Positions 17,214-23,822 of a DNA stretch of 41,348 nucleotides are shown here, piece by piece. The stretch lies in IMG/VR virus record IMGVR_UViG_3300048609_000070; one strand, written 5' to 3'. Origin of the DNA: a virus. Under the pieces are notes generated by a model that was not told where the DNA came from, ran no database searches, and worked only from the letters and a program-made list of their open reading frames with translations. Both the position numbers and the translations under genes were made by a program. Each line of letters opens with the position of its first letter. Positions within the stretch are counted from its first letter, which is position 1.

Positions 17214-17525
17214 CTACTCCTCTCTTTTTGTGCAGATCCTGAGCGCGGTGTTTCGCTCAACGCCGTGGCACAGGAGCTCTTCATAGTTTGTTTTCGTGTG
17301 CCTTTGATGTGCTTTGATTGCAGCAACAATGTCATTGGGGTCGAGATGCTTCGTCTCAACCCACTTTTTCCAAACCTTTCCTCTCTTTCTGGCGTTGGCT
17401 GTCAATGCTGCTACAGCGTCGTCGAACCATTTTGGGTCCGGAATTTGGCCAAGAACCTTGGCCAAGATTTGTGCAACGAAATTTTCTGAGTAATGTGTCT
17501 CTTCTAAAAATGCTTTCCAGGTCAT
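17214..17525 (-). CDS. hypothetical 103-aa protein immediately upstream of, and coupled to, the MqsA-like gene
   Basis: Its stop overlaps the downstream start (ATGA). Basic protein with no family recognised. Confidence 0.5.
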   Translation of the reverse strand: MTWKAFLEETHYSENFVAQILAKVLGQIPDPKWFDDAVAALTANARKRGKVWKKWVETKHLDPNDIVAAIKAHQRHTKTNYEELLCHGVERNTALRICTKREE

Positions 17526-17535
17526 GACCGTCCTT

Positions 17536-18957
17536 TCACGCGAGATGCCCTACCATATTCAGGTTACCTTGACAAGCCCTTCTTGGTCCAGAGCTTATTT
17601 TTCCAAGAATATCGAGTGCCCTGTCCGCAACCTCCTGTTTGGCGACAAGGACTTGTGCCATCCGAGCGTCAATGGATCCATCGACCACGAGGTGTTGGAT
17701 AAGCACGGGATTTTTGGTGCCAATTCTGTGGCAGCGGTCCTCTGCTTGGCTCATATTCGCGGGCACCCAATCGAGCTCGGCGAAGACCACCACCGACGCG
17801 GCGGTCAAAGTGATCCCGAGTCCGGCCGCCAGGAGGGACCCGATGAAGACGCGGACTCTTGCATCCTCTTGGAATGATCGAATCAGAGCCTCCCGCTGCA
17901 TGGCCGGAGTGTCCCCGGTCAGGATCACGGCTTCTCCTTTAAAGGAGGAGGCAATCCCGTCTATGACATCATGATGATGTGCAAACACCACAACTTTTTC
18001 TTCTGTCTCCAGGATGTCTCGGACGTGCCGCACGACCTGGGGGACCTTTGACAACGCCAGGGCATGTCGGGTCCGGGCGAGTTCGCCGAAAGCCACCTGT
18101 CGCATGTCCTGGAGGCTCAGGACGGCATCCTGGTAGGCATCCCCCGTGCTCTCCCTGACCTTGGACTCAGCGCCAACGATGGCCTGCTGAATCCGGTTCC
18201 AGATGCTTTGCTCCTGAGCGACGAGATCCTTGCTCCCCTGGAGGCAAACGATCTGCCGGCGCTTGGGTGGGAGGTCCCGCAGGACTTCTGCCTTGGACCT
18301 CCGGACCATGATCGTGGACCGAAGTTTTCGTTGGAGCTCGTCCAGGTGCTCGGCTCTTCCATACCTCGCTCGGAAGCTTTCGAAGCTCCCAAATGTCACC
18401 GGGTCAAGAGCACCCGCGATTCCTTGAATCTCGGTCGGGGTGTTGAGTAAGGGCGTTCCTGACAGGAAGACTTTCTTTCGGCATTTATCGATGAGACCCG
18501 GGATCCTTTTTCCATCTATCATATACCCCAAGATTGCTTTTGTCCGTCTGGTTTTCCTGCCCTTTAGTTTGTGAACTTCATCTACAATCAAGAGATCATA
18601 GGTTCTGTTGAAGAGAGTCCCTGCAACGATCTCGTTGAGGACTTTATCGTAGTTTATGACGATGAATGTTTTGTACTCCGGGATGGGGGAGTTGTCCATC
18701 ACGACATGAAATTTCCAGTCTCTGACTAGCCACTTCTTGGCTTCATGAATCCAGTTGAGCCGGACTGTTGCTGGACAGATCACGACAACGGACTTGATTG
18801 TTGAATCCCCATTGATGATCCCGAGCGCTTGGATTGTCTTCCCAAGCCCGGGAGGGTCTGCGATCAAAACATTTTTTCTGGCCAGACCGAAAGCGATCCC
18901 ATCTTTCTGGAACGGCAGATAGGAGAGATCTTTCGGTGCGGGAATAATATTAAACAT
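17536..18957 (-). CDS. SNF2-family helicase/ATPase (helicase core only)
   Basis: Motif I LIADPPGLGKT, motif II LLIVDEVHKLKG, motif III FLSGTPLLN, motif VI QAEDRCHRIGT; 473 aa. Confidence 0.85.
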   Translation of the reverse strand: MFNIIPAPKDLSYLPFQKDGIAFGLARKNVLIADPPGLGKTIQALGIINGDSTIKSVVVICPATVRLNWIHEAKKWLVRDWKFHVVMDNSPIPEYKTFIVINYDKVLNEIVAGTLFNRTYDLLIVDEVHKLKGRKTRRTKAILGYMIDGKRIPGLIDKCRKKVFLSGTPLLNTPTEIQGIAGALDPVTFGSFESFRARYGRAEHLDELQRKLRSTIMVRRSKAEVLRDLPPKRRQIVCLQGSKDLVAQEQSIWNRIQQAIVGAESKVRESTGDAYQDAVLSLQDMRQVAFGELARTRHALALSKVPQVVRHVRDILETEEKVVVFAHHHDVIDGIASSFKGEAVILTGDTPAMQREALIRSFQEDARVRVFIGSLLAAGLGITLTAASVVVFAELDWVPANMSQAEDRCHRIGTKNPVLIQHLVVDGSIDARMAQVLVAKQEVADRALDILGKISSGPRRACQGNLNMVGHLA

Positions 18958-18966
18958 TGGTCCCTC

Positions 18967-19455
18967 CTACGCTGCAAGGTCTTTCTTCAGGTACGCCCGC
19001 GCTCTCCGGATAGCTCTCTTGTGGCGCCACGAGATGAGAGCAGGGGAACAGCCCTTTGATGGTGCGATTTCTCGGATTGTCTTTTCTTCGAGGTACATCT
19101 GAGAGAGGACTTCGACATCCTCTGGGGTCAAGTGCTGATAGATGGCATGCACATCGATCACTGCATCATTCATTGGATACTGTACTATACCAGAACGTAT
19201 ACAGGAGCAGTTCTTATTTTCTCTACACTCATGTCGGCAGGCGTCCATGATGGCAGACTTCGCGCGCATGAGAAAGAACGTGGATGGAGCAGCACCTCTT
19301 GATGGATCGTAGTCTGAAATGGATTTCATGGAGGCTTCATTTCCGATTTGTATGAGGTCTGAGATATCAAAACGGTAGGCAGTCCAGCGGAGATACTTAG
19401 CGGCGAGTCTCCTTATCTTCTGTTGGAAATCGTTTGAAGCAATCAATTCCTTCAT
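18967..19455 (-). CDS. ECF-like sigma-70 family sigma factor
   Basis: Region 2: DLIQIGNEASMKSISDYDPSRGAAPSTFFLMRAKSAIMD. Region 4 HTH: LTPEDVEVLSQMYLEEKTIREIAPSKGCSPALISWRHKRAIRRAR. RBS AAGGAGAA before ATG 19455 (the ORF track extends to 19635). Confidence 0.7.
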   Translation of the reverse strand: MKELIASNDFQQKIRRLAAKYLRWTAYRFDISDLIQIGNEASMKSISDYDPSRGAAPSTFFLMRAKSAIMDACRHECRENKNCSCIRSGIVQYPMNDAVIDVHAIYQHLTPEDVEVLSQMYLEEKTIREIAPSKGCSPALISWRHKRAIRRARAYLKKDLAA

Positions 19456-19843
19456 TTTTATTCTCCTTGTCAATAAGGTAACGAATGAGCATGGATTCTT
19501 TGACGATCCGTTTCTTGTCCTGGTCCGCGAGGAGGCCCACCGCGCGTACTTCTCCACGTGTTCTGACTGTAATTTCCATTCCCCAGACAGCGGGACCCCA
19601 ACCAAATGGATGGCTGGAGAGACGGACTTGCGCAAGCTCGTCGTAGCTCTTGCCTGAGTCTATTTTTCGTTTGTCTTCTGGTGAGCATGGCATTGCCAAG
19701 ACGCCCTCAAAATCGCCATCGACATAGAGGAGCCTTATTCTGCATGCATCTTCGGGTTCTCGAACGATTTGTTTCAATTCTGCAAGGGTCTGATAGGGGA
19801 AATCCTCTTTGTTTATTTCGGGCTTTGTGTAGGTCTTTTTCAT
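19397..19843 (-). CDS. hypothetical protein; its start codon abuts the IS left end
   Basis: 148 aa beginning MKKTY. No RBS directly upstream. A perfect AAAGGAGG lies on the far side of the IS at 21255-21262. Confidence 0.55.
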   Translation of the reverse strand: MKKTYTKPEINKEDFPYQTLAELKQIVREPEDACRIRLLYVDGDFEGVLAMPCSPEDKRKIDSGKSYDELAQVRLSSHPFGWGPAVWGMEITVRTRGEVRAVGLLADQDKKRIVKESMLIRYLIDKENKNEGIDCFKRFPTEDKETRR

Positions 19844-19939
19844 CGGAAATTCGCCCGGGCGGAGACTCTGGCGTTTACGCCGGTGAGGAGCCCGGGCCTC
19901 CTTTCTCTGTCGTTATATGCCTTCCTGATCTGAATTCGC

Positions 19940-19969
19940 TTGACTTGTCTATAGATGCCAATCTATACT
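19940..19969 (+). promoter_or_regulatory. tnpB promoter TTGACT-18-TATACT
   Basis: -35 at 19940-19945 and -10 at 19964-19969, 8 bp before ATG 19977. Confidence 0.4.
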
Positions 19970-19976
19970 TTGACCC

Positions 19977-21233
19977 ATGCAGATTCGCAAGGGATTCCGC
20001 TACCGCATCTACCCTTCGCCCGAGCAGATCGAACGACTCGGGCAGTGGGAGAATGCGCTTCGGTTTCTTTGGAACCTCGCTCTCGATCAGCGTCTTTTGT
20101 GCCTCAACCGGACGCGGTACAACCGGGTCTTTCTGACAGCCTTCGACCAGATTAACGAACTGACCGAACTCCGTAAGGAAGTCGCTTGGCTCGCTGACGT
20201 TCCCAGGAACGTTTGTGCTCAGCTTCTGGTCGAGCTCGATAGGTCCTGGCAGCGCTGCTTCAAACGCATCGCAAAACAACCCCGCTGGAAGAAGAAGGGC
20301 CGGGACTCTATCGGGATCTGCGAGCCCCATCCGAAGGTGTGGCAGCTGGATGGGCGTACATTGCGCTTTCCCAAGCTCGGGGCAATCCCTGTAGTGCTGC
20401 ACCGGCCGCTCGAAGGCAAGCCCAAGACATGCACCATCCGCCGTGATGGGGACCAGTGGTTTGTGAGTATCTCGTGCGAGGTCGATGTGGCAGATCCTGT
20501 CCCTTCCAACAAACCCGCGATTGGCTTGGATCGGGGCGTCGTCAATCTGATCGCCGGTTCTGACGGGCGGCTCGTTCCCAACCCAAGACATCTCTCGGGA
20601 ACCCAGCGGCGGCTCCAACGAGCCCAACGGGTGGTGGCGAGAAGAAGAAGGGGTTCGAAGAATCAAACGAAAGCCAAGGGCCGCGTTGCCAGGCTGCATC
20701 GCAAAGTCCGCAGGCAGCGCGAGCACATCCTCCACGTCGAGTCCCACCGCATCGCCAAGAGCCACGGCCGTGTGGTGGTTGAAAAGCTCGATGTGAGGAA
20801 CATGTCCCGAAGTGCCAAGGGGACACTCGAAGTCCCGGGCAAGCGTGTGAAGCAGAAGGCCGGGTTGAACCGGGCCATCCTGGATTCGGGATGGGGCGCG
20901 TTCGTGGTCATGCTGCGGTACAAATTGGCCTGGGCCGGAGGGGTGCTGGTCGAGGTCCCCGCTGCCTACAGCTCGCAGACCTGCTTTCTCTGCGGGGCGG
21001 TAGATCCCCGAAGCCGTGTGTCGCAGTCGGAGTTTCGCTGCACGGCTTGCGGGCATGAAGCACACGCGGACATCAACGCGGCGAAAGTGTTGCTCAGCCG
21101 AGGAAACCTCGGTGGTGCTGTCTGTGGAGGATCCGCTGAAGTAGGGCGTCCTGTGAAGCAGGAACTCCGCGTCGTGAGGCGTGGACAACGGTCTAAGCAT
21201 GGTTCAGAGCTTCTCCAAAGCTCGGGCCTTTAG
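19977..21233 (+). CDS. tnpB: TnpB (OrfB) RuvC-like RNA-guided nuclease of IS200/IS605 family
   Basis: N-terminus FRYRIYPSPEQ. RuvC-I GLDRGV. Zn finger CFLCG...CTACGHEAHADINAAKVL. 418 aa. Confidence 0.85.
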   Translation: MQIRKGFRYRIYPSPEQIERLGQWENALRFLWNLALDQRLLCLNRTRYNRVFLTAFDQINELTELRKEVAWLADVPRNVCAQLLVELDRSWQRCFKRIAKQPRWKKKGRDSIGICEPHPKVWQLDGRTLRFPKLGAIPVVLHRPLEGKPKTCTIRRDGDQWFVSISCEVDVADPVPSNKPAIGLDRGVVNLIAGSDGRLVPNPRHLSGTQRRLQRAQRVVARRRRGSKNQTKAKGRVARLHRKVRRQREHILHVESHRIAKSHGRVVVEKLDVRNMSRSAKGTLEVPGKRVKQKAGLNRAILDSGWGAFVVMLRYKLAWAGGVLVEVPAAYSSQTCFLCGAVDPRSRVSQSEFRCTACGHEAHADINAAKVLLSRGNLGGAVCGGSAEVGRPVKQELRVVRRGQRSKHGSELLQSSGL

Positions 21234-21260
21234 GCCGGGGTAGTTTACGGGAGCCTCCTT
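21080..21260 (+). ncRNA. predicted omegaRNA (reRNA) scaffold spanning the 3' end of tnpB and the right end
   Basis: Inferred from the known TnpB architecture; only the right-end hairpins are seen directly. Confidence 0.3.
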
Positions 21261-21278
21261 TTGGGTGGGAAGGCTAAC

Positions 21279-21950
21279 TTACTTGAAAGAAAGAGGCAAG
21301 AGAAATTTTCGGTAGAATTCCTTGACGTTCTCAAAGTTCCGAGGAGCGAAGTGTCCCGTGGCGTAACGCCGTTTCCCTACGAGTCTGACCTTCACGGACT
21401 TTGCATAAGCGATCTTCCGGATTTGACTTGGTGTAATTTTGTAGAAGGCAAAATCTAAAATAAATCGTAGCCCGGAATCTACGACATCTTGCTGTGCTCC
21501 TTCAGTTTTTAGCTTTATTACTTTTCCATCCACGATGAGTTGCAGCGATTCACCGTCTGCAATGAAGAGACCGGCGTCACTCCGGAATGTTGCGGCAACG
21601 CTGATGTAAACGTAGCCCGTATCGAATTTGTGTACGTAAATGTCAAACCCGATTGGTAAGGAACTCTTGTCTTTATCATCTGACAAGATGAAATTTTTCT
21701 GCATGGAATTCGAAGTCATTTTGTCGAATTCGTCGTACTTGGATTTGTACTCCATGCTTGTTCCCGCGTAGTCAATTTCATCATCAATGTCATCATTCGA
21801 TGTTTCGTGTTGTCCAAGCTTCGTCTCTAGATTTTTTATTTCTTCTTGACGCTCCTTGATCTGCGTATTGAGATCTTTTACTCCCAGCGGTTGAGCGCTG
21901 GCTGCCATCGCGTGAAGCGTGGCAACGATCACACAAAAAATGTTCTTCAT
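21279..21950 (-). CDS. secreted protein, unknown function
   Basis: Signal peptide MKNIFCVIVATLHAMAASA; 223 aa. Confidence 0.6.
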   Translation of the reverse strand: MKNIFCVIVATLHAMAASAQPLGVKDLNTQIKERQEEIKNLETKLGQHETSNDDIDDEIDYAGTSMEYKSKYDEFDKMTSNSMQKNFILSDDKDKSSLPIGFDIYVHKFDTGYVYISVAATFRSDAGLFIADGESLQLIVDGKVIKLKTEGAQQDVVDSGLRFILDFAFYKITPSQIRKIAYAKSVKVRLVGKRRYATGHFAPRNFENVKEFYRKFLLPLSFK

Positions 21951-21961
21951 AACTTTCTCCT

Positions 21962-22192
21962 TTAGTACGTTCTTTTTTTATAGGGAATGCGTCTTTCGAG
22001 GTAGGCAACCCGATGCTCCAAAGCGTCACATCTAGCTTCCAGCTCATTAGCTCTTGCCTCAAGCTGTTCTTGCTCAGTCACGATGTCATCGACAACGCAT
22101 GCGAAGACATCTAGAATAAGCTGCTTTTCTTTTTTTGGGAGGTTGCAGTAGTTGACCAGCGGGATGATCACGTGTTCGAGCGCTTCGCGCAT
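21962..22192 (-). CDS. small coiled-coil protein
   Basis: 76 aa, heptad-like EQLEARANELEARCDALEHRVAYLERR. Confidence 0.45.
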   Translation of the reverse strand: MREALEHVIIPLVNYCNLPKKEKQLILDVFACVVDDIVTEQEQLEARANELEARCDALEHRVAYLERRIPYKKRTY

Positions 22193-22208
22193 GCTTTATC
22201 CTCGAAGT

Positions 22209-22856
22209 TTAGTTGACGTTTAGTCCTATCTCTTCTCCGCATTCTACACAAATCAAAGGTTCCGGGCAAGCACCACGTTCTTTAATCGTGCTTCCTACTA
22301 TTTCTTTCGAAAGTTTCGAGTTGGCCCACAGCACGCCAAGGCGTTGCAAGGGCCGGTTTGAATTCCAGTATAGTGCCTCCCCATCTGGAAATTGCTTTGG
22401 CGCACAATCCGCGCAAACAAACTGGCATTCCTTTGAAGCGTTTTTACCACAGGAACAATAACCAAGGAGCAAACGCCAGCCATCGCAGGTATGAACGTAA
22501 CCCAAAGACTCCGCAACGTCCGTTGTTGCGGGATCTGCGCCCCATCCATCTTCAATTCGAGATGCATCATTGAACTCTTCTTCTGCCTTTTCGATGTCTC
22601 CAGACTCATGCGATTCAATTGCTGACTTTATACAATCTTCATAACTTTCGGCGGAGTCCCATATTTCCATTTCTTCCTGGACGAGACACATAGCATCTTC
22701 CATCGAAATTTCCTCGTATATTTCTTGGAAGATCTGAAAGATTTCCTCGAACTCTTCATTGCGGAAGTGCTCGGCAATCTTTTTGAATTCTTCACCATTA
22801 AACCTCTGGCTTATGCTATGGAACCATTCTTCCTTTGTCTCGTATTTTACTGCCAT
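22209..22856 (-). CDS. hypothetical acidic protein with a Cys-rich C-terminus
   Basis: 215 aa; CSCG...CADC...CVEC. Confidence 0.55.
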   Translation of the reverse strand: MAVKYETKEEWFHSISQRFNGEEFKKIAEHFRNEEFEEIFQIFQEIYEEISMEDAMCLVQEEMEIWDSAESYEDCIKSAIESHESGDIEKAEEEFNDASRIEDGWGADPATTDVAESLGYVHTCDGWRLLLGYCSCGKNASKECQFVCADCAPKQFPDGEALYWNSNRPLQRLGVLWANSKLSKEIVGSTIKERGACPEPLICVECGEEIGLNVN

Positions 22857-22865
22857 GACTTCCTC

Positions 22866-23174
22866 CTATGGAATTTCTTTTAGTAGCCTTTGGATATCGC
22901 GTTCCGTGAGGGAGACATTTTCTCCTTCATCGTCGATTCTTACGATGAAGAAAGTCCCGTAAACTAGATCGAGATTTGGAATCACACGGTTTGCTTCCTT
23001 CGTGTATCGGCCTGTGCTATGACATATGACCATGAGACTCGGAAAGTTTGGAACAGCCCAACCTTCAATGTACCCTTCGACAACCTCTTGTGAAGCTTCC
23101 AAGGTGTTGTCAATCTCGGTCAGGATGGGTGGGAGTCCTACTTTGTAAACAAGCACTTTGATTTTTTTTGTCAC
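22866..23174 (-). CDS. hypothetical protein
   Basis: 102 aa, tightly packed with neighbouring genes. Confidence 0.5.
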   Translation of the reverse strand: MTKKIKVLVYKVGLPPILTEIDNTLEASQEVVEGYIEGWAVPNFPSLMVICHSTGRYTKEANRVIPNLDLVYGTFFIVRIDDEGENVSLTERDIQRLLKEIP

Positions 23175-23175
23175 T

Positions 23176-23379
23176 TTAGAACCTGCTTTCCATGACGTAA
23201 AGAACCGTGTGAAGTTTCAGGATCTCTTTCCCGATTTGCCGTCTATAGCTTGTTAGCTCTGAAACTTTTTCGTCGTCTTCCAAATCTTTCAGGATGTCCA
23301 TGGATGACGAGACAAATTCCATATGGCCAAGCAGCTCTTTGATCTTGTCCATGAGCATCCTTTCTAAATCTCTGTGCAT
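23176..23379 (-). CDS. hypothetical small protein
   Basis: 67 aa; RBS AAAAGGAGG upstream. Confidence 0.45.
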   Translation of the reverse strand: MHRDLERMLMDKIKELLGHMEFVSSSMDILKDLEDDEKVSELTSYRRQIGKEILKLHTVLYVMESRF

Positions 23380-23403
23380 TTTAGCCTCCTTTTGATTTCC
23401 AGC

Positions 23404-23431
23404 GGAGGGATGGAACTAAGTTCCATCCTCC
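23404..23431 (-). other. intergenic stem-loop GGAGGGATGGAAC-TAA-GTTCCATCCTCC (no U-tract)
   Basis: 12-bp imperfect inverted repeat between genes 23451-23822 and 23176-23379, just upstream of the latter's RBS. Confidence 0.35.
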
Positions 23432-23450
23432 CGTTGAATATCAATACTTT

Positions 23451-23822
23451 TTAGTTGGCCATTTCTGATTTTTCGGCGCTCAAAAGCCCGACAATTTTCT
23501 GTTCTAGCTTCTGGTCAATTTCGTCCGCAGCTTTTTCCATGCCATTCCGGATCAGATGGAACACTGTTGTAACTTCCGGTCCTTCTACATCCAATTCGAG
23601 TGCTTCAAATGCGCCAGTGAATGCCATGTGCATTTTGAGAAATGGATGGTCGGGATCTCCTGGGAAGAATCGGCCTGTCGAGTCCACGGCTACCAGGTAG
23701 AATCCACCTTTCTTCGCAGCCACAATCTCCCATCGTGTGACATCGGCGTCTATCGTGCATCCTTTCCGGATTGCCTCAGCGTCTTCTTTTGTTTCAGCGT
23801 GGACCCAATATTTATTTTCCAT
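23451..23822 (-). CDS. hypothetical protein
   Basis: 123 aa. Confidence 0.5.
   Translation of the reverse strand: MENKYWVHAETKEDAEAIRKGCTIDADVTRWEIVAAKKGGFYLVAVDSTGRFFPGDPDHPFLKMHMAFTGAFEALELDVEGPEVTTVFHLIRNGMEKAADEIDQKLEQKIVGLLSAEKSEMAN

Follow-up and report, generated by a model that had tools for sequence, protein, structure and literature searches.

Insertion of a tnpB element upstream of a phage gene

The stretch of DNA analysed here, referred to as the window, comprises 41,348 nucleotides (nt) of viral DNA from the IMG/VR record IMGVR_UViG_3300048609_000070. Most probably (we put the probability at about 0.9), a non-autonomous insertion sequence (IS) encoding TnpB and an omegaRNA has inserted in it 3′ of a TTCAT motif, thereby displacing the Shine-Dalgarno (SD) sequence AAAGGAGG and its CTCCC spacer about 1.4 kb from the ATG of a minus-strand gene for a protein of 148 amino acids (aa). 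The element spans positions 19844–21248 on the plus strand (1,405 bp), belongs to the IS200/IS605 family and, carrying tnpB only, is of the IS1341 type. Its G+C content is 60%, compared with 48.6% in the remainder of the window.

The evidence comes foremost from an IS-free allele. The sole database homologue of the 148-aa protein (P0001, 96% amino-acid identity) is encoded on L028 (ENA ERZ27247852), a contig of 1,654 bp that lacks the IS and carries the upstream gene, the 148-aa gene, a sigma factor and a helicase in the same order as the window. L028 aligns to window positions 21455–21254 and 19843–18398, between which it has 6 bases of its own and the window has 1,410 extra bases. On the gene strand, the L028 junction reads TAAGTTAGCCTTCCCACCCAAAAGGAGG-TTACCC-ATGAAAAAG, with the SD sequence 6 nt from the ATG, while the window reads TAAGTTAGCCTTCCCACCCAAAAGGAGG-CTCCC-(1,405-bp IS)-ATGAAAAAG. 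Reduced to its core, AAAAGGAGG-TTACCC-ATG of L028 corresponds in the window to AAAAGGAGG CTCCC followed by the IS, so that the SD sequence and the ATG lie about 1.4 kb apart. The insertion is seamless, since its junctions show no duplication.

A preliminary description, made from the letters of this DNA, had already proposed that an IS200/IS605 TnpB element came between an SD sequence and its start codon, and this is borne out by the empty site in L028, the right-end boundary and the conserved RNA structure. The uninterrupted locus of L028, with which the window has now been compared, shows the same SD sequence beside the ATG. The description of the IS as G+C-rich with tnpB on the plus strand also stands, by the above values and a Pfam OrfB_IS605 match. 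Its coordinates needed correction: the perfect AAAGGAGG is indeed the gene's own SD sequence but occupies 21254–21261, one base off the given 21255–21262, and the left edge of the IS does adjoin the ATG, at 19844, but its right end is at 21248, 6 nt to the left of the earlier value of about 21254. In the whole window, AAAGGAGG occurs 8 times where 2.45 occurrences are expected, and 7 of the 8 copies are on the coding strand.

Ends and target site of the element

About 100 loci encoding relatives of this TnpB (50–68% identity) were gathered from IMG/VR, GTDB genomes and metagenomes. The 3′ regions of these relatives can be aligned through a conserved ...CTTTAGGGCGGGGTTGATTAC and diverge straight after TTAC. 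The right-end boundary was defined from about 90 relatives, and the (A/T)TTAC terminus is kept in about 60 of them. Identical IS copies found at separate sites (L079, L080 and L088; L039 and L040) have flanks which differ directly after TTAC. The right end in the window is thus at 21248 (...GGGGTAGTTTAC), and GGGAG at 21249–21253 therefore represents the native spacer between the SD sequence and the ATG.

The left end (LE) was located in about 45 loci by a left-end profile hidden Markov model (HMM). In these relatives, the base 5′ of the LE is always the T of CAT, within what is usually TCAT and most often TTCAT; NTCAT precedes the left end at 38 of 41 junctions and TTCAT at 23. Because L028 keeps TTCAT at its empty junction, TTCAT is the target and lies outside the IS. 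The TTAC- or TTTAC-like target that had been expected at the left junction has to be abandoned in its favour. Two candidates for such a motif were considered and rejected: GTTTAC at 19873–19878 belongs to the LE hairpin loop, and the TTTAC of 21244–21248 forms the right-end terminus. Both ends carry subterminal imperfect hairpins (19868–19883 in the LE, 21220–21241 at the right) with compensatory changes in relatives.

No TnpA-like sequence was detected in the 41-kb window (best tblastn E = 0.8). Many relatives do have a Y1 tnpA, either divergent from or co-oriented with tnpB. Since it lacks tnpA, the window copy is considered a non-autonomous, IS1341-like derivative.

Some relatives show unusual arrangements. 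In L003 (about 640–680), a left end abuts the TTTAC terminus of another right end, with TCAT missing between them, and in L002/L071 (about 3520), a second LE-like sequence is found about 280 nt downstream of the first element; both look like tandem or adjacent insertions. In L015 (2351–2359 and 4067–4077), the LE tip begins with the same 8 nt (ACCACCTC) as the right flank, which is unexpected in a family that makes no target duplications.

TnpB, the omegaRNA and its predicted guide

The TnpB protein scores above the cut-offs for the Pfam families OrfB_IS605 (PF01385), Cas12f1-like_TNB (PF07282) and HTH_OrfB_IS605 (PF12323), and its residues 4–371 align to the solved ISDra2-type TnpB chains 8h1j and 8exa (E of about 5e-36, about 30% identity). 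The RuvC residues D185 (GLDRG), E269 (VVVEKL) and D365 (HADINA) are intact, as are the zinc-finger cysteines C336, C339, C355 and C358 of both CxxC pairs. A nuclease-dead regulator of the TldR type was also considered; the intact catalytic triad and the presence of both IS ends rule it out. This exact protein is not on record in the protein database.

Two sigma-70-like promoter sites were found compared with 0.5 expected, one of them (10 of 12 matches) located in the LE. No SD sequence precedes the tnpB ATG at 19977. As this promoter ends only 7 nt before the ATG and the SD sequence is missing, the tnpB mRNA is probably leaderless. Relatives share this layout, with TATGCT-like boxes 7–9 nt before a GTG or ATG, and tnpB mRNAs are probably leaderless across the clade.

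The omegaRNA consensus was derived with RNAalifold from the right-end regions of 35 non-redundant relatives, and compensatory changes were observed in 16 of its 19 pairs. Paired cells amount to 96.4%, compared with 79% in shuffled alignments (none of 500 shuffles reached the observed value) and at most 57% when the partners were slid. The conservation of this region ends exactly at the right-end terminus.

The TnpB guide is said, from work of Karvelis in 2021, to be the flank 3′ of the right end in ISDra2-type elements. By this established logic, which Meers et al. (2023) also document, a predicted guide starting at 21249 (GGGAGCCTCC...) spans the complement of the orphaned SD sequence and covers 21254–21261, in agreement with the earlier expectation that the guide would correspond to the right flank including this site. 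The inferred empty site, TTCAT followed by GGGAGCCTCC..., reconstitutes both the target-adjacent motif (TAM) and the guide match. The L028 allele reads TTCAT followed by GGGTAACCTCC, with mismatches at guide positions 4–6 (GGGTAA compared with GGGAG in the window), which would be expected to block its cleavage. The sole differences in the 33-nt intergenic region fall within these bases (203–208 in L028, 21249–21253 in the window), the other 28 nt being identical. The spacer change in L028 could be an escape from TnpB targeting or could have arisen by chance; two changes are too few for claiming selection.

From these features, a cycle can be proposed. The tnpB gene would be transcribed from the left-end promoter as a leaderless mRNA, and the omegaRNA would carry the guide GGGAGCCTCCTTTTGG... 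The complex of TnpB and omegaRNA would then cut IS-free copies having TTCAT followed by the guide sequence, while the IS-bearing locus would be spared because the guide match there is preceded by TTTAC and not by TTCAT. An IS-bearing genome would then serve as the partner for a recombination that restores or spreads the element. This would follow excision by a TnpA acting in trans or take place between phages infecting the same cell.

Insertion of relatives at gene starts

Judged by the junctions of its relatives, the position of the insertion in the window is no accident. TCAT is the complement of ATGA, and the relatives sit 3′ of TCAT, usually at the start codon of a gene on the opposite strand. 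Among 32 independent left-end junctions flanked by 200 nt or more, 27 have an open reading frame (ORF) of at least 60 codons starting there on the opposite strand, compared with 47% of the other TCAT sites in the same flanks, which served as controls (p = 1e-5). As the target is the complement of ATGA, surviving copies come to lie directly 5′ of start codons and antisense to the gene. When the empty sites were reconstructed, in most of them an in-frame stop closed the region upstream of the ATG within a few tens of codons, and in 12 of 26 no other possible start lay between such a stop and the ATG.

About 12 of 27 sites show the stop/start overlap typical of operons, in which the TGA of ATGA terminates a long upstream ORF. 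At insertions into such overlaps (for example, the junctions of L050, L005, L076, L059, L039, L006 and L107), the last codon of the upstream gene changes from nnA to nnG and is followed by TAA, a change that is synonymous in every case inspected. The right-end terminus provides both the G of nnG and the TAA, as GTAA is the gene-strand form of TTAC. At the inspected insertions of this kind, the downstream ATG is unaltered. Furthermore, 22 of 39 distinct LE tips place GGAG or GGAGG 4–7 nt before the host ATG, but the tip in the window does not. The LE tips exceed shuffled sequences in anti-SD binding (p = 6e-6) but do not surpass their reverse complements, so this test does not discriminate.

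A stop-free frame antisense to tnpB

The tnpB genes of this clade largely avoid the codons TTA, CTA and TCA, whose complements are stop codons. Among 65 non-redundant members, with the expectation taken from each gene's own third-position usage, 79 such codons were counted compared with 577 expected (ratio of 0.14); the tnpB of the window has 1 compared with 9.6 expected. Members near 50% G+C have none, compared with 14–17 expected. Since the depletion exceeds each gene's third-position expectation, the openness of the antisense strand is not merely an effect of G+C content. The corresponding ratios are 0.52 in flanking host ORFs and 0.47 in more distant TnpBs. Stops per 100 codons amount to 0.32 in the codon-aligned antisense frame, compared with 2.2–2.7 in the four other alternative frames. 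It should be kept in mind that these antisense-frame statistics are drawn from related, non-independent sequences.

The open frame extends to the target. Both ends are known for 28 elements. In 17 of them, the frame reading nnA-TGA at the left junction contains no stop over the last 1,000 nt or more before that junction, a length that the other two antisense frames attain in 2 and 0 elements, and in several elements the nnA-TGA frame is open over the full length of 1,347–1,710 bp. One further IMG/VR element shows the same open frame. In the segment of LE and tnpA, the frame has 16 stops, compared with 74 and 61 in the other frames. Residual stops are concentrated in the right-end-proximal tenth of tnpB. 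In the window, the antisense frame runs open for 441 codons up to a TAA (19877–19875) that precedes the ATG at 19843 by 31 nt; it is out of phase, the element being 1 mod 3 in length.

Codon choice at the HAD(L)NA motif shows a strong preference for synonyms that give GAGGTCNGC-ATG on the antisense strand, with CAT used in 45 of 56 cases (background 0.24) and CTC in 29 of 35 (background 0.41). As this site lies in the omegaRNA region, the preference cannot be attributed to an antisense start. The antisense ORF matches no Pfam family, and no description of an antisense ORF or of translational coupling in tnpB elements was found in the searchable literature. The most economical reading of these patterns is that translation through the element, or at the least a frame left open for it, may have been selected for ending at the host ATGA and so re-coupling the downstream gene.

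Taken together, the target, the ends and the antisense frame permit a broader proposal, which we advance tentatively and hold at somewhat less than an even chance: this clade may be built for low-damage insertion at gene starts and operon junctions. The TCAT target would correspond to the ATGA overlap, the right end would restore a stop for the upstream gene, and the GGAG that most LE tips place 5–7 nt ahead of the host ATG would serve this start. The open frame would span the element of 1.2–1.7 kb, including tnpA in a second frame, and end at the TGA of the target, so that ribosomes could translate across the insertion and coupling to the downstream gene could be regained. The window copy would conform only partly, as a partly degenerate example without an SD sequence in its tip and with a frame that ends 31 nt early.

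Consequences for the 148-aa gene

The direct effect of the insertion is predicted to be the loss of SD-dependent initiation for the 148-aa gene. In the 20 nt before the ATG, the best SD:anti-SD duplex has an energy of −2.9 kcal/mol, compared with −11.6 kcal/mol natively and −12.3 kcal/mol in L028. The preliminary description had stated that the gene now has no ribosome-binding site, which holds within these 20 nt.

The best-surviving account of what follows, with close to an even chance in our view, is silencing: without an SD sequence and with a G+C-rich LE stem beside the ATG, no initiation would take place, and the intact ORF would reflect a recent insertion. The weakened duplex agrees with this, as do the promoter scan, which found no outward promoter in the LE, and the LE tip without the GGAG carried by 22 of 39 relatives. 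Against it, the 148-aa ORF is intact and its codon differences from L028 are mostly synonymous (11 compared with 6 non-synonymous), though most of these differences predate the insertion. The sigma-factor and helicase genes downstream in the same operon, and an open antisense frame reaching to within 31 nt of the ATG, also speak against silencing.

That frame is the basis of the next account, partial rescue, which we consider rather unlikely. Here, ribosomes would translate the 441-codon antisense frame from 21200 to 19875, stop 31 nt upstream of the gene and re-initiate at 19843; such translation would avert Rho-type polarity and melt the LE hairpins. The clade-wide selection of a stop-free antisense frame, the TGA overlapping the host ATG at the end of this frame in 17 of 28 relatives and the retention of an open frame over 1,326 nt in the window are consistent with this idea. 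However, the window frame is out of phase with ATGA and halts early, and its start ATG at 21200 has just a distant GGAG, 12 nt upstream.

A split SD sequence appears improbable. Phage T4 gene 38 is a precedent for a split SD sequence bridged by a stem, and in the window a second perfect AAAGGAGG inside the LE might likewise be brought beside the ATG by the 8-bp LE stem. This 8-mer is on the correct strand, lies directly 5′ of the stem and is the favoured SD sequence of the phage, and the stem is predicted in both RNA and DNA folds, with the motif at its base and no start codon after it. However, the fold z-scores are modest (−1.1 to −1.9), and the minimum-energy fold has GAAA paired to UUUC, with GGAG confined to an internal loop. 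In addition, relatives have no such motif at that position, and the motif could be due to chance.

Finally, it is very improbable that the insertion itself is an assembly artefact in which host-borne IS reads were joined into a phage contig. In favour of an artefact, the Logan contigs L029 and L110 (SRR33185868) both end inside tnpB near 21032–21041, within about 10 nt of each other, as would be expected if the sample contained further IS copies resembling this one. Against it, both junctions are biologically exact: the target is TTCAT, the terminus is TTTAC, and the flanks fit the L028 empty site without a seam. A contig spans each junction (L029 the left, L110 the right), and a chimera would not reproduce the insertion rules of the family. 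The positions at which L029 and L110 break off suggest a graph branch, with variants or additional related IS copies in this sample that may belong to the host.

Several points weigh against the insertion as reconstructed above. Only a single empty allele is available, from a phage with a divergence of about 4%, and because its spacer is TTACCC and not CTCCC, the ancestral spacer of the window lineage had to be deduced. No identical IS copy was found in viral, genome or metagenome collections, the closest TnpB being 68% identical, and the LE boundary accordingly rests on the empty site and on homology. No Rfam covariance model matched 19000–22000 at E ≤ 1. L029 and L110 may come from the same sample as the window and so do not count as independent confirmation of the assembly.

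Features of the element and its neighbourhood

The coordinates of the features are collected in Table 1. The genes surrounding the element are nearly all on the minus strand, and their PHROG matches include helicases, a sigma factor and several phage-only families. The 148-aa protein has no Pfam or PHROG match, and a scan of IMG/VR with it returned no relative. No related phage was found in INPHARED by a distant BLAST search with 17500–23500, which gave only short helicase and sigma-factor matches. The mechanically called sigma-factor ORF (18967–19635) starts with TTG and shares about 240 nt with the 3′ end of the 148-aa gene; because the gene call in L028 starts later, with an overlap of 59 nt, the true start is probably an internal ATG. 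Within the SNF2-type helicase gene (17536–18957, minus strand), the stretch 17600–18400 has a G+C content of 56–62%, compared with a window mean of 49%, and may be a mosaic segment.

Table 1. Positions of the element, its parts and the adjoining phage genes in the window.
Feature	Position	Strand	Remark
Target site/predicted TAM TTCAT	19839–19843	+	on the other strand ATGAA, with which gene 19397–19843 begins
Left end (LE), 133 nt	19844–19976	+	matched by the LE profile HMM
LE outer stem, 8 bp	19853–19860 / 19890–19897	+	architecture as in relatives, compensatory changes
LE inner hairpin CTGGCG-TTTA-CGCCGG	19868–19883	+	resembles the right-end hairpin (GGCxTTTAxGCC)
Second perfect AAAGGAGG	19897–19904	−	within the LE, adjoining the outer stem on its 5′ side; distance to the ATG 53 nt
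Sigma-70-like promoter TTGACT-N18-TATACT	19940–19969	+	10/12 matches; ends 7 nt before the tnpB ATG
tnpB, 418 aa	19977–21233	+	Pfam, structure-chain alignment, motif positions
Stop-free antisense frame, 441 codons	21200–19875	−	codon-aligned with tnpB; its TAA falls in the LE inner-hairpin loop
omegaRNA scaffold	21098–21248	+	overlaps the tnpB 3′ end; covariation in relatives
omegaRNA local hairpin	21098–21112	+	
omegaRNA helices	21121–21125/21158–21162, 21129–21131/21149–21151, 21135–21137/21145–21147	+	RNAalifold consensus
Right-end hairpin	21220–21241	+	
Right-end terminus GTTTAC	21243–21248	+	other strand: GTAAAC, i.e. G + TAA
Predicted omegaRNA guide/TnpB target half-site GGGAGCCTCCTTTTGGGTGG	21249–21268	+	first bases 3′ of the right end
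Orphaned native SD sequence AAAGGAGG of gene 19397–19843	21254–21261	−	native spacer CTCCC at 21253–21249
Phage gene with interrupted leader, 148 aa	19397–19843	−	ORF intact; ATG at 19843 directly adjoins the element
Upstream phage gene, 223 aa	21279–21950	−	stop 31 nt before the ATG in the empty allele

Relation to known systems and significance

The element shares with ISDra2 and IS1341-type TnpB elements the helix-turn-helix domain, the RuvC D-E-D triad and the zinc ribbon, an omegaRNA overlapping the tnpB 3′ end and the right end, a guide taken from the flank 3′ of the right end, a TAM that equals the target 5′ of the left end, and subterminal hairpins without inverted repeats or target duplication. 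It differs from ISDra2 in its TAM (TTCAT instead of TTGAT), in sequence (about 30% identity), in the lack of tnpA, in an RNA without an Rfam model and in the stop-free antisense frame of its clade. IS608 of Helicobacter pylori has TTAC as the target at its left end and AAAG for left-end pairing. The window element follows the same rules of the Y1-transposase family in that it lies 3′ of a short motif and its two ends carry similar hairpins, and its right end has TTAC as well as AAAG 5′ of the hairpin; unlike in IS608, TTAC is here the right-end terminus and TCAT the target.

The target and TAM 5′-TTCAT-3′ has been verified experimentally for ISGst5 of Geobacillus stearothermophilus (Meers et al. 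2023). ISGst5 shares with the window element this motif and the logic of cutting the empty site and restoring the copy by recombination, which is predicted here, but it encodes IscB and not TnpB. Neither a start-codon habit nor an antisense frame was described for ISGst5 in that study (Meers et al. 2023). The element is a new member of a well-known family, while the gene-start targeting and the features of the ends and the antisense frame look new.

The finding places a guide-RNA nuclease element in a phage. Since the predicted guide derives from the ribosome-binding region of a phage gene, a competing allele without the IS is the predicted target. Phage homing-endonuclease genes likewise encode nucleases whose target is the element-free allele, and the window element may be a counterpart of these that is guided by RNA and not by protein. 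Engineered non-polar cassettes, in which the insert supplies a stop upstream and an SD sequence and start context downstream, offer a second parallel, although the corresponding low-damage features of the clade are deduced from sequence statistics. If these statistics reflect function, the clade would represent a transposon that, through its choice of target and its two ends, has become adapted to leaving flanking ORFs and translational coupling intact. This would help to explain the high copy numbers of TnpB elements in compact genomes, and the antisense open frame would be a previously unnoticed constraint on the evolution of tnpB sequences and on TnpB engineering.

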